Shown: piece after piece, positions 42,178 through 61,899 of the stretch
Layout: each line of letters opens with the position of its first letter
Position numbering within the stretch: the first letter of the stretch is position 1
NCBI GenBank assembly: GCA_951406725.2
Contig: OX597825.1
Location: forward strand, 31,372,001-31,436,000
DNA: 64,000 bases
Direction: 5' to 3'
Source: Octopus vulgaris
Lineage: Eukaryota
The notes under the pieces: model-generated
What the model was told of the DNA's origin: nothing
Databases searched by the model: none
The model's input: the letters and a program-made list of their open reading frames with translations, nothing else
Translations under genes and position numbers: made by a program

Positions 42178-43070
42178 AACTATTTATAACTGTTACTCCG
42201 TCGAAGGTTGTATATATACATATATTTTCCGAGCACACAATCTTAGATGAAGTCACTTGCTATGCAAGTACATCTCTCTAAATAGAAGGATTATATATCT
42301 ATGAAATGTTCTATTGTTTTAACTGAAATGAAAATAAAACTTTGTATTGACATTACCAGCCTTCGCATATATATAGTATTGGTTTTACTCGCTGGCAACT
42401 CGATAAAATCTTTATATTTATATATATACATATATAGACATATATATATATACATAAATATGTATATATACGTATATATACATACATATATGCATACATA
42501 AATATATATATATATATACATATACATATATACACACATATATATACACATATATAGACAATATATATACATTTATATATAGAAAGATATACATGTACAT
42601 TCATATATATTTACATATATATATATATATATATATATATATATATAACAAAGTTGAGTTGTGGGGTATCGCACGAGTGGAATTATATACGAAAGAAGGT
42701 TTGAAAATGCAATTTAAAAGATGTTTATTTACTTAACCGGTTTCACTCTTTGGAAAAAGATTGTCAAAAGTAACATAGAATATTATGAATTCAAAAAAAA
42801 TTTACATAATTGCCACATTACATGTATATATACAGCCTTTGGTAACAGGGACATGTTAAGGACATTACAACTATTTATAACTGTTACTCCGTCGAAGGTT
42901 GTATATATACATATATTTTCCGAGCACACAATCTCAGATGAAGTCACTTGCTATCCAAGTACATCTCTCTAAATAGAAGGATTATATATCTATGAAATGT
43001 TCTATTGTTTTAACTGAAATGAAAATAAAACTTCGTATTGACATTACCAGCCTTCGCATATATATAGTAT
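42178..43070. repeat. Local direct duplications around a hammerhead-bearing element
   Basis: 42178-42378 is repeated at about 42868-43070; about 41737-42040 is repeated at about 42379-42630. Confidence 0.8.
42729..42773 (-). ncRNA. Minimal hammerhead motif, U3-A8 core variant
   Basis: TTACTT-TTGACAA-TCTTT(ttcc)AAAGA-gt-GAAA-CCGG-TT-AAGTAA. Confidence 0.7.
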
Positions 43071-43670
43071 ATTTGATAACGTACCTCATGCGGAAATACA
43101 CACTGTGAGATAAATACGCTCATACACTCGCACGCATACATTCACAGACAGATATAGTCATATACAAAATATGACGTCTTTGTGGTTAACCCGCCCTTAC
43201 ATACATATAGTATGTTTAATAATGTACCTAACGCGGAAAGACGCATACACTGTGAGACATATACACACGCATACACTCACTCCCATACATCGATAGGCAG
43301 ATACACAGTCATATACAAAATGTTACGTAGTCGGTGTCGTCGTGGTTAGAATTAAAAGTAAAAGTATAAAAGTGAAACAATATATCACATTACAATATAT
43401 ATGCTATTGCTTCACTTTTATTCTTTGAGTTTTGACATGGAATATGGAACCAGTGCCAATTTTACACTGTTTTAATCCAAAAAATTACATGTTGATACTC
43501 ACTGGGTCTGATATAATTATCATGTAAAATTTGATTTGACTTGGTTGAGAATGCATTGGGAATAGACAGAGATATAAAGGATTGTAGATAGATAGATAGA
43601 TAGATAGATAGATAGATAGATAGATAGATAGATAGATAGATAGATAGATAGATAGATAGATAGATAGATA

Positions 43671-43910
43671 AGTTTCTTTATTGGCCACACAGGGCTGCAC
43701 ACAGATGGGACAAGTTACAAGGTAGAGCTTTTCTTTTGGGGGATGAAAAAAACAAAAAACAAAAGAAACAAAAAAAAGGGGTGGCGTAGGTTTTCGATCA
43801 AGAGGGATCGTAAAAGGGAAGAAAAGAACAAAAAAAATAAAAGAAAATAAAAGAAAAGAAAAAAGAAAAAGAAAAAAAGAAAAGGAAAAGGAACAAAAGA
43901 AAAGAGAAAT
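43671..43910 (-). mobile_element. Tx1-like non-LTR 3' UTR inserted in (GATA)n
   Basis: Same 3' terminus as the copies at 50441 and 50953; (GATA)n on both sides. Confidence 0.75.
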
Positions 43911-46019
43911 GATAGATAGATAGATAGATAGATAGATAGATAGATAGATAGATAGATAGATAGATAGATAGATAGATAGATAGATAGATAGATAGATAGA
44001 TAAGTAGCTAGTCAAATATATCGACACCAGGGACTGCCTGATACTTCTTTTATCGATCCCGAAAAAGTGAAAGTCAAAGTTGACCTTGGTGAAATTCGAA
44101 CTAGAATTGCAAAGACAGAAGAAATGCTTCTCAGTAATTTTTCCGGCACGTTAAGGTGGCGAAATGGCAGAATCTTTAGCTCGCCGCATTAACGTGCTTT
44201 TTAATAATTATTTAGTAACATCAGCATATAAATGTTTTAAAGAAAAACAAAATTGCAAGATTGTAATAATTATAAAAATAGCTTAAAAGGCAATATGTAT
44301 ATCCAAATTAACGTGGATGTTGTGTTAGAATACCGAATACTACGAATAAAAACACTCATATTTATATCGTTGGTAGACGAGAGTCGGCTGTGGACACCGA
44401 AACTACCAGGTCATGATATTTCATCCTGCCCAGGCTCTTCAGTGACAGACGTTACTGCTGAATCTCACTGTCCATGATATATAGAACTTCAGTGTCTTTT
44501 CAGGAATTGATGTCGCAAATAGCCGGTAGGTGCATTATATGCATCAGGCATCCATATGAGAGAGCCTCTCATGGTTAATAACGCAGTATTCGGTGTCCTA
44601 ACACAACATCCATGTTAAGGTGGATATAAAGATTGTCTTTTGGTATTAATACTGCTCCCGTTGGTATCAATTATTTTTTAATAAGCCTGCTGGCTATTTG
44701 CGGCATCAGTGCATTGAGAAGTACTTCTTACGTAGGAATTATATTTGAGACTTCAAGAAAAGGATGCATTTCTGAAAGCATCTTGGTTTCAATGTTGTTA
44801 TCCATATGTCATCACCATGGATTCTTCTGTTGCGGGCGACAGATGAGGTCTTTGCAATGTCATGCTGCACTATCTGCACATGGTTTGTTTATATTGACCA
44901 AATATTTGCACTGCACATTAGAACATTCCCTCCATCAAATTAACATCGCAGGTACAGGTGCACAAGTGTGCCACACGTCATATGTCGAAATGATTGCCGA
45001 GCAACGTGAAATGAAGTATTTTGCTCAAGAACACAATGCACCCCTCCTATCAGGGAATCGAAACCACGATCTCGTGATCTTGAGCGCAATACCCTAATCA
45101 CTAGGTTACACGCCTTCACTATGTACGCTTTAACTAAAAGTGGATTTGTTGCGATATGATTTTCAGGCGAAATTTAGGTTTTGAAAATGAAGAGAAGATA
45201 GCAAGAGATGAAATTTAAATGAATTCGTGTTGATATGTATGCTGTGTTTGTTTGTAAAACTAATATGGATATTCTAAGAGAATAAATACAGCTCTCTTGC
45301 AGCGTATTAGCACGATACTTAGTCTTGAAAATAGTAGTACGAGACACCTAAAAATGGCCCTGTGTTTGAGGAGTATTGTATTGTAGTAAATGAGGGAAGA
45401 TTAACAAGAGACAAGAGAAGAAAATTAAAATTTAAAATCAATGAATGCCAGAAGCAAATAAATGCATTTAGAGTAAGGTATAGATAGATGATGCCAAAAC
45501 CTAAGAATTATTTCTATATTGGAGTGAGGGTGTCTGTATATGAGGGGAGGGGAATATGAGCATAAAGACACACACACACACATACATACACATACACACA
45601 CATACATATATATATATGTGTGTGTGTGTGTTTGTGTGTGTGCGTGTATGTATATATGTATGTATGTGTCTGTGTGTGTGTGTGTGTGTGTGTGTGTGTG
45701 TGTGTGTGTGTGTGTGTGTGCTTCCAATTCGTCTTGATCGCGCTATATTTTCCCATCTTGACCGAAATCGCTCAACTAGATCGTCTTTCTGTTACTTCTG
45801 CAAAATATTAATAAAAATATATATATATATATGTATATATATATATACTATCTCTTTTATACGTTTCAGCTCTAGGGCTGTGGCCATGCTGGGGCTCCGT
45901 ATCGCATCGAAGACGTATGAGTGCTCAGTGAGAAGACAGTAAAAGAAATCCAACCAAACAGACAATCAACCACACATTCACACTACAATTACTACCATTC
46001 ACCAATGTTTGTAATTCAT

Positions 46020-46400
46020 TCACTTCGCCTGATGACTCTTCACGTGTGTCTTCAGGTCACCAAAAGCAGTATGGATATGAGTATGACTTACTGAACCGGC
46101 AAGTCATCTAGCCGAGAAATCACAATGTGGATAATGGTGGTTGTTCTGTTGGTTTATTTTCCTATTCTCTTGATGAATTATTCGTTGAGTTATTTGAACA
46201 TGGAAGGTAACCTGGTCCAACACGAGCATTAAAATCTCTCAACAGAAAAATTTTATTTTTATTGAGAATTTGGTCCAGTAATATTTGTAAATCGGAATCG
46301 AACTTATTTTTAGCTGCGCCTGTAGAACCAAGTGCTGGTACATAAGCACTCACCAGTATGGCATATTTTTCTAAGCCAATTGAGATTTGCAATAACATAT
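46020..46400 (-). mobile_element. RTE-like LINE APE endonuclease fragment
   Basis: LVSAYVPAL..KNKFDSDL...IFLLRDFNARVG, matching the GDFNARVG motif. Confidence 0.8.
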
Positions 46401-46728
46401 CTATTATATAAATCCGTTCTGTCTGTGTGTGTGTGTGTTTTCTAGGATCTTGGGCGTCCTCCATCAGATTGCGCTCAAATTAGATGTGTAGATACCGACA
46501 GTATCTGGGCGTGTATAAACCTTGAAAAAAATTACAAAAATCCATTCCAGGTGAGAATGCAATCGATAAATCCGTGGAAACCTGCATTTGTACGCGCAAG
46601 TATATCAGCTGTTGCGATCGATACTACGCGTACGCGAGAAATATGTGTGTGTGTGTATACATATATATACATACATACATACATACATACATACATACAT
46701 ACATACATATATATATATATATATATAT

Positions 46729-60572: not shown

Positions 60573-60980
60573 GTGGAGGCGCAATGGCCCAGTGGTTAGG
60601 GCAGCGGACTCGCGGTCGTAGGATCGCGGTTTCGATTCCCAGACCGGGCGTTGTGAGTGTTTATTGAGCGAAAACACCTAAAAGCTCCACGAGGCTCCGG
60701 CAGGGGATGGTGGTGATCCCTGCTGTACTCTTTCACCACAACTTTCTCTCACTCTTACTTCCTGTTTCTGTTGTACCTGTATTTCAAAGGACCGGCCTTG
60801 TCACTCTCTGTGTCACGCTGAATATCCCCGAGAACTACATTAAGGGTGCACGTGTCTGTGGAGTGCTCAGCCACTTACACGTTAATTTCACGAGCAGGCT
60901 GTTCCGTTGATCGGATCAACCGGAACCCTCGTCGTCGTAACCGACGGAGTGCTCCTACCTACTACAACAACAACAACAAC
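60573..60980 (+). mobile_element. Full-length tRNA-derived SINE (head C, tail X)
   Basis: A box TGGCCCAGTGG, B box GGTTTCGATTCCC, (AAC)n tail; TACTACAACAACA on both sides (possible TSD). Confidence 0.88.
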
Positions 60981-61669
60981 TACTACTACCACAACCAACA
61001 ATAATTTCTGTGCAAAGCAAGTACAAACGTTTGAATCCACTTCAATGGTCAGAACATCTCCCTTCACAAATTGGTAGCTAGATGATACAAATCAGGATTT
61101 TACCGAGGCCAGAATACAATCAACTCACACAAATAAATGCTATTGTCTTCCTTCCCTGCTTTCGTTATGTGCCAACGATCGAAACTTGGGACTTGAGCAA
61201 TCTAAAGCCAATGAACGCTTCACTCACGTCCACATTTCATAAATTACATAATGTTAAAACTAAAATGCTGGAAATCGAAACACATTCATACGAATTTTTT
61301 GTAACATGATATTTCAGGGAGAATTTTCCTTTCAAAGTTCATAGCACGTCATAGCACATCGCTGAGTGTCACTTCTGATACAGGTGCAATAGATTCACCA
61401 TCATTGTCCTAGAACAAGCTTGAATAATTCTCTTGCACTGTCAAAATTTCATATAAAAGATCGCGTATGGACAAGGTATATATAAGCACATGCGTAATTT
61501 ATTTGTTTATATACACGTGTGCATGAATGTGTGTATATGTATGCGTGCGTGCGTGTGTGTGTGTGTGCGTGAGCGTGCGTGCATGCATGTATATATATAT
61601 GCATATATATACGAACATATTTGCATATGTGTGCGTACATATATATATATATATATATATATATATATA

Positions 61670-61738
61670 TCTCTATATAAACGGCAGTTTGTCTGTGCGT
61701 TTTCTGTGTGTCTGTTTTCTCGTACCCTCTACTGCTAG
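61670..61738 (+). mobile_element. 69-bp mini-Helitron derivative
   Basis: TCTCTATATAAACGGCAGTTTGTCTGTG...TGCTAG between A and T; both ends match the 11610-12096 element. Confidence 0.7.
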
Positions 61739-61854
61739 TATATATATATATATATATTTATAATAAGAGTAGATCGTATACGAGTGGGTATATATGTGTA
61801 AAAAAAGAAGTTTGAAAACGCCACTATATTAGATAAATTTTAATTTTCTTATGA

Positions 61855-61899
61855 ATTTTACATGTTTCGGTTCTTGAAAAGACGAACCTTATCAAAAAT
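61855..61899 (-). ncRNA. Minimal hammerhead motif, U3-A8 core variant
   Basis: ATTT-TTGATAA-GGTTC(10 nt)GAACC-GAAA-CATG-TA-AAAT. Confidence 0.75.

Follow-up and report, generated by a model that had tools for sequence, protein, structure and literature searches.

Minimal hammerhead motifs with a U3-A8 core in the 3' ends of two sister Neptune-type Penelope-like families of Octopus vulgaris

In the 64,000-nucleotide stretch of the Octopus vulgaris genome analyzed here (the window), two sites read TTGACAA and TTGATAA instead of the hammerhead ribozyme core CTGANGA. The question is whether these heptamers belong to a family-level variant, with U3-A8 in place of the C3-G8 pair, or to decayed canonical hammerheads, and whether such motifs cut. 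A preliminary description placed both cores correctly but omitted their strand, which is the minus strand, and gave them under the single span 42729-61899; these are two independent insertions, 19 kb apart (Table 1).

Table 1. Features of the two insertions in the window.
Feature	Positions	Strand	Details
Element 1 (family 1, Neptune-type PLE 3' end)	42648..42865	-	5'-truncated, ORF-less; 92% match to L063 3' end
(TA)n-rich microsatellite adjoining element 1 3' end	42413..42647		likely target
Hammerhead motif, site 1 (minimal type I)	42729..42773	-	core UUGACAA 42767-42761
Site 1 stem I	42773-42768 / 42734-42729	-	TTACTT/AAGTAA, 6 pairs
Site 1 stem II region	42760-42745	-	U.U first pair
Site 1 GAAA	42744-42741	-	
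Site 1 helix III palindrome	42740-42737	-	CCGG
Site 1 U16.1-U17	42736-42735	-	predicted cut between 42735 and 42734
Element 2 (family 2, Neptune-type PLE 3' end)	61761..62494	-	5'-truncated, 3' UTR only
Short (TA)n run adjoining element 2 3' end	61739..61760		
Hammerhead motif, site 2 (minimal type I)	61855..61899	-	core UUGAUAA 61895-61889
Site 2 stem I	61899-61896 / 61858-61855	-	ATTT/AAAT, 4 pairs
Site 2 stem II	61888-61869	-	GGUUC/GAACC, 5 pairs
Site 2 GAAA	61868-61865	-	
Site 2 helix III palindrome	61864-61861	-	CAUG
Site 2 U16.1-A17	61860-61859	-	predicted cut between 61859 and 61858

Both sites contain the minimal hammerhead core (UUGANAA, GAAA, and UU or UA), a type I arrangement in which stems I and II can pair (five pairs in each stem II), though they are thermodynamically weak (-1.1 kcal/mol at 37 C for stem II of site 1), and a short palindromic helix III. 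Both stems I, the site 2 stem II and the palindromes pair as originally described, but the characterization of the stems as completely swapped was an overstatement, given that three of the first four stem I pairs are identical between the sites. The site 1 stem II has to be redrawn: the proposed TCTTT/AAAGA register leaves GT bulged before G12, whereas a register that starts with a U.U pair requires no bulge (U10.1.U11.1, then C-G, U-A, U.G, U-A, U-A). The U.U-first register is retained in subfamilies A2-A5 and D, and recurs in four outside relatives with C3-G8 (L209, L210, L219 and L290). Site 2 has the highly conserved G10.1-C11.1 pair (PMC4209133) and no extra base after A9; site 1 lacks this pair and has U at position 17. 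Both the G10.1-C11.1 pair and the extra base are usual in PLE minimal hammerheads but not compulsory. All four letters occur at N7 among the subfamily examples, H17 is U, C or A but never G in the sample of loci picked by their tails, and stem II is poorly paired in the single copies inspected of subfamilies C, C2 and F.

As the preliminary description anticipated, canonical searches miss the variant: targeted Rfam scans detected no hammerhead at either site with E up to 10, and there was none among the 150 listed of the 263 matches from the whole-window Rfam scan. A strict motif scan of the window passed over site 1 because it required a paired 10.1-11.1; it picked up site 2, along with a doubtful motif at 3538. 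Folding-energy z-scores (0.68 and -0.34) do not support either motif, and neither monomer adopts the hammerhead shape in predicted folding.

The window copies derive from the tails of two Penelope-like element (PLE) families that are related to each other and very abundant, with 2,115 (family 1) and 1,549 (family 2) first-look candidates in the genome and proteins that are about 51% identical between the families. The long copy L063 of family 1 carries a reverse transcriptase (RT) and GIY-YIG ORF; element 2, which contains a 102-bp tandem duplication (62233-62436), matches L034, L038 and L064 at 82-90%, and the latter two hold RT or GIY-YIG ORF pieces. Both elements end in a minimal type I hammerhead, whose helix III is palindromic, followed by a short tail and then (TA)n, the last of which terminates most family copies. 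The likeness of the flanks holds up, with a local alignment score of the 3' tails reached by only 2 of 1000 shuffles; the elements had been correctly recognized as related, without their identity as Neptune-type PLE 3' ends being named. Both window copies, which are solo, ORF-less, 5'-truncated and located at (TA)n, are most likely inert.

The long copies encode, in a single ORF, the RT (PF00078) followed by a C-terminal GIY-YIG endonuclease (PF01541), with a C-X4-C-X2-C linker between the two domains in both families and a DKG motif in the family 1 ORFs and, for family 2, in L207. They also show the usual PLE layout, with an inverted 5' copy and a one-sided tail, and in L063, L064, L204, L205 and L207, the hammerhead lies downstream of the RT and GIY-YIG ORFs, that is, in the PLE terminal repeat. 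The Neptune clade is characterized by the RT, a Cys-rich linker, C-terminal GIY-YIG, the DKG motif, microsatellite targeting, an inverted 5' copy, a tail and a hammerhead near the 3' end (PMC8557442, PMC3846280), and the octopus families match it in domain order, linker, DKG, microsatellite target, inverted 5' copy, tail and hammerhead placement. Assignment to this clade, based on these diagnostic features, appears appropriate, with the linker being shared by Nematis. The Naiad PLEs, a tempting assignment given that they 'lack canonical hammerheads', are rejected: Naiads have an N-terminal endonuclease and a DKA motif, whereas the octopus elements have a C-terminal endonuclease and DKG.

Collecting the family copies, as had been proposed, shows that the consensus at positions 3 and 8 is U3-A8. 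Genome-wide, U3-A8 has 6,613 matches against 507 for the reversed-pattern control, and C3-G8 has 1,660 against 157; the mismatched states are rare (451 against 266 for U3-G8 and 517 against 184 for C3-A8). U3 and A8 are present in all 29 printed rows of family 1 and in 28 of the 30 loci of family 2, the other two being U3-G8. When 30 loci were selected by the tail only, 22 had TTGACAA, one was degenerate, seven lacked a core and none had CTGANGA. In each of four public runs, which consisted of contigs, all alternative letters at positions 3 and 8 stayed below 8%, and neither family's stems appear among the first 100 listed C3-G8 matches. These observations rule out the possibility that the consensus is CTGANGA and that both window copies decayed independently to U3-A8, a possibility favored solely by the fact that each of the two changes is a transition. 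Thus, rather than reflecting decay, U3-A8 represents the consensus of the families, and it dominates the octopus motifs of this shape; therefore, CUGANGA-based searches would miss most of them.

In the RT tree, the U-A families of this genome form one clade (SH-aLRT 100 and 98 in quick searches without bootstrap), and its nearest motif-bearing relatives are C-G. With one U-A origin for both families, the two sites represent a single event and do not count as independent covariation. Across the 28 rows of the tree, the 3-8 state changes six times, and the hypothesis that every U-A row goes back to a single origin is rejected (p-AU 1.6e-95). The trees leave out subfamilies C and D and the main C3-G8 family of the genome (ORFs too short), two loci whose motif runs antisense to their ORF (L269 and L282) and two that share a contig with L294 (L295 and L296); L289, with a U-G match inside its ORF, was scored as motif-less in the first tree and omitted from the second. 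A scan of 91 outside loci that allowed only six 3/8 letter pairs identified 29 elements with the motif: 22 C-G, five U-A, one A-U, one U-G and no C-A. The outside relatives underwent additional, separate changes to U-A and one to A-U; the tree adds that the pair switched several times across PLEs, yet stayed Watson-Crick.

The same end structure could have been reached by another route, namely, loss of G8, with the extra base that follows A9 in many PLE hammerheads sliding into the core, and a subsequent C3U change. Many PLE motifs have such a base (PMC4209133), and its absence between A9 and stem II in site 2 and in the outside element L214 fits this history; the nearest C3-G8 relatives (L209, L210, L215, L219, L222 and L290) likewise lack it, however, and the U-A motifs of L256 and L287 retain it, so this route is very improbable.

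The U3-A8 variant itself is already published, in PLE hammerheads (PMC4209133) as well as in hammerheads at large (PMC3088659), and is, as such, of little weight; what is new is a host in which it is the main form. The closest precedent is the Cercyon PLE of Schistosoma mansoni, with about 1,300 copies of U3-A8 minimal hammerheads of the dimer type (Cervera and De la Pena 2014, PMC4209133), for which the supplement lists UUGAUAA, the heptamer of site 2, and UUGAAAA. The octopus motifs share with these the type I form, palindromic helix III, U3-A8 core, location in a PLE terminal repeat and presence in over a thousand, mostly solo truncated copies. They differ in being carried by a Neptune-type element, in the ratio of U3-A8 to C3-G8 (about 4 to 1), in the 4-nt palindrome of helix III with no extra base after A9 and, in family 1, in the U.U at 10.1-11.1. 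Perreault et al. 2011 (PMC3088659) describe several natural hammerheads with the same C3-G8 to U3-A8 covariation and state that previous in vitro studies had shown it to be active; the passages in question link these examples neither to PLEs nor to the minimal form of the dimer type. Against this background, the additions made here are modest and consist of the U3-A8 dominance, the recurrence of U.U in relatives and the cut-site clustering in family 1 described below. Lunse et al. reportedly described small, dimer-cleaving variants of PLE hammerheads in 2017, and the octopus motifs may already be listed there.

The favored reading, with a probability of about 0.72, is that two sister Neptune-type families carry, in their 3' ends, minimal type I hammerhead motifs whose U3-A8 probably derives from one ancestral change in this lineage; active members would cut as dimers, probably with the help of protein, the window copies most likely being inert. 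The motifs are likely self-cutting. In active tandem parents, two motifs would pair via the palindromic helix III (CCGG or CAUG) and cut the transcript after U16.1-H17, probably aided by the element's protein, with U3-A8 maintaining the tertiary 3-8 pair but making the reaction somewhat slower. The earlier notion of U3-A8 as a tolerated swap is valid only in certain contexts: when all double mutants of a single type III hammerhead were scanned, the 3-8 pair was rescued only by the G-C swap (PMC9901934). The PAc element (Poseidon, Anolis carolinensis) offers a parallel in that its PLE hammerhead depends on the 3-8 pair and cleaves only with the element's protein (PMC11167929); it differs in its canonical C3-G8, in belonging to the Poseidon clade and in that its cleavage was assayed and proved to be protein-assisted.

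The weak stems, the monomers' failure to fold into the hammerhead shape, the null z-scores, the U.U at 10.1-11.1 and U17 of site 1, and the poor stem II pairing in certain subfamilies count against the favored reading, as do the anole results below. The weak stems, the U.U and these subfamily copies are also what would be expected of a vestige, a hammerhead that drifted to A+U, lost cutting at a useful rate and persists as a passenger, or only as a 3'-end signal for folding or protein binding. C>T and G>A are presumably both in the common direction of mutation in an AT-rich genome; the anole PLE hammerhead is dispensable for insertion in vitro, with no RNA-seq reads ending at the cut site (PMC11167929), and Naiad PLEs flourish without canonical hammerheads (PMC8557442). 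A vestige is nevertheless rather unlikely because the core letters and the palindromic helix III are retained across families whose proteins are about half different, the 3-8 pair is almost always Watson-Crick in outside lineages, A-U included, and the 5' ends of family 1 cluster at the predicted cut site.

This clustering bears only indirectly on dimeric cutting and is the one lead of wider value because in vivo cutting by PLE hammerheads is still open (PMC8557442, PMC11167929). In family 2, the clustering was not reproduced (three 5' ends against one, p=0.59). In family 1, 20 loci have their 5' ends in the cut-site window compared with two downstream (p=0.004, post hoc test; p=0.03 once eight palindrome-pivot inversions upstream are counted). 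It is conceivable, albeit doubtful, that the family 1 hammerheads, despite the U.U and U17, cut the element RNA in vivo in the germ line, and that the genome records this as cut-site 5' ends some five times commoner than those in flanking windows. If so, these ends would be in vivo evidence of a PLE hammerhead firing during retrotransposition and would provide a genome-only assay applicable to any PLE family.

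The hammerhead feature at both sites is real, and U3-A8 hammerheads as a kind are already published: natural examples were described in 2011 (PMC3088659) and ~1,300 minimal ones in Schistosoma Penelope-like elements (PLEs) in 2014 (PMC4209133), the supplement of the latter including the heptamer UUGAUAA, which is also the core of site 2. Among the papers listed by the literature searches, none deals with PLE hammerheads of octopuses; the repeat study of O. vulgaris makes no mention of hammerheads.

Both sites are parts of high-copy families (a first look at the genome gave 2,115 candidates for family 1 and 1,549 for family 2). 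The elements consist of an inverted truncated 5' copy, a long copy, the hammerhead, a one-sided tail and (TA)n, an order usual for PLEs (PMC8557442), and were assigned to the Neptune type by diagnostic features (PMC8557442 and PMC3846280), not by tree separation from Nematis. The proteins of the two families are ~51% identical; among named homologues, one from Octopus bimaculoides ranks first (83%). The window copies are ORF-less stubs of ~220 and ~735 bases. At three other family 1 loci (L063, L204 and L205), an inverted 3'-end copy precedes the long ORF copy; the open stretch of L204 spans 736 codons, so family 1 is young.

The cores lie on the minus strand where the preliminary description had placed them, and the likeness that it saw in the adjoining sequence holds, the local score of the 3' tails being equalled by 2 of 1000 shuffles. 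Its ‘completely swapped stems' hold for the helix III palindrome, CCGG at one site and CATG at the other; stem I pairs are identical at three of the first four positions. The bulged stem II register proposed for site 1 fits less well than one starting with a U.U pair. The latter register recurs in the own-genome subfamilies A2–A5 and D, and four outside relatives, whose core is C3-G8, share it as well. Folding energy of either monomer gave no support for a hammerhead, and the Rfam models gave no hammerhead match at either site.

U3-A8 is the family consensus. All 29 family 1 copies whose alignment was inspected carry it, as do 28 of 30 copies of family 2, all picked by similarity and hence biased towards the query; therefore, a further 30 family 1 loci were chosen on the tail alone. 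TTGACAA is present in 22 of these, one core is degenerate and seven are absent, and none reads CTGANGA, the consensus expected had the two cores decayed independently. At positions 3 and 8 of site 2, no other letter reached at least 8% in any of four public runs (with four different species labels). Genome-wide pattern matches, which count copies and not independent events, number 6,613 for U3-A8 (507 for the reversed-pattern control), 1,660 for C3-G8 (157), 451 for U3-G8 (266) and 517 for C3-A8 (184). The first 100 C3-G8 matches belong mostly to one other family, and none has the stems of the window families. The main C3-G8 motif family of the genome (L099–L128) has stem II GGCUG/CAGCC and an extra A after A9. 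Its stem I is nearly absent when read in the direct register, and the RT remnants that accompany it, at 2 of 30 loci, are all short.

The outside sample comprised 91 loci with related ORFs from metagenomes and bacterial bins, likely host DNA. Among its 29 elements with the motif, the 3-8 pair is C-G in 22, U-A in five, A-U in one, U-G in one and C-A in none, in a scan that admitted only six letter pairs; the single U-G match sits inside an ORF and is likely due to chance. Quick tree searches were run on 46 and on 28 rows. Both unite the U-A families of this genome in a single clade (SH-aLRT 100 and 98) whose nearest motif-bearing relatives are C-G, so that sites 1 and 2 reflect one shared event and not separate covariation. 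Other U-A cases branch apart from this clade, and one of them has a C-G element as its sister (support 100); the 28 rows imply six state changes, and a single U-A origin is rejected (p-AU 1.6e-95; p=0.019 for the four closest U-A rows). Thus, the pair switched several times across PLEs with Watson–Crick pairing kept, which fits selection on it; the direction was probably from C-G to U-A, as read from neighbouring branches. A third Watson–Crick form, A3-U8, is found in the PLE hammerhead of an outside element (L274:1969-2010, plus strand), tree sister of the U3-A8 element L256. Animal-type PLEs also lie within contigs of several GTDB bacterial genomes (L288–L298), likely host contamination of the bins.

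Beyond the anatomy, position, consensus and ancestry of both motifs, which are observed, a mechanism may be proposed by analogy: two motifs would pair via the palindrome and cut slowly (compare PMC4209133), and cleavage may require the element's protein (compare PMC11167929, where hammerhead cutting is dispensable for insertion in vitro). Weak stems, U.U at 10.1-11.1 and U17 count against strong activity, as does a double-mutant scan in which only a G-C swap gave rescue (PMC9901934). Solo stubs like both window copies have no partner and are likely inert.

Since several truncated copies end at the predicted cut site, match ends were counted in three windows. For family 1, the cut-site window holds 27 matches (21 true ends at 20 loci and six internal changes), the downstream window three (two ends) and the upstream window 12 at 10 loci. 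Once corrected for how likely a copy is to pass each filter, the comparison gives p=0.004 for the site against the downstream window and p=0.03 for the site against all loci, in a post hoc test whose windows are not exactly alike; about five ends, by eye, lie 2 bases upstream of the predicted cut. Family 2 gave three ends versus one (p=0.59). The clustering in family 1 should be taken as a lead and not as a result. In a literature search that did not cover Lunse et al. 2017, no paper was found in which truncated Penelope-like copies are discussed together with a hammerhead and its cleavage site. At eight of the 10 upstream loci, the matches are inversions pivoting exactly on the helix III palindrome, which suggests template switching or fold-back there.

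Among other features of the window, the U6 match is likely a pseudogene or retrocopy, judging from its sequence, the duplications around element 1 are a local rearrangement, perhaps linked to the insertion, and the inverted repeat is possibly a MITE-like hairpin.

Hammerhead motifs and other features of the window
Feature	Position	Strand	Details
Site 1	42729-42773	-	stem I TTACTT, core TTGACAA, 16-base stem II region, GAAA, CCGG, TT, AAGTAA
Site 2	61855-61899	-	ATTT, TTGATAA, GGTTC..GAACC, GAAA, CATG, TA, AAAT
Decayed PLE endonuclease fragment	3146-3346	+	
Doubtful C3-G8 hammerhead-like motif	~3538-3572	+	after endonuclease fragment; no palindromic helix III
Weak match to PLE endonuclease region	38389-38679	-	28%; remnant of another, more distant element
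Duplicated microsatellite block	from 41736 and from 42378		beside element 1
202-bp duplication	42178-42379 and 42869-43070		99% identical; both sides of element 1
Long imperfect inverted repeat	47923-48126		non-simple sequence; plant miRNA model match below threshold
U6 snRNA match	58185-58292	+	Rfam, 75.8 bits, above gathering score; several changes from consensus
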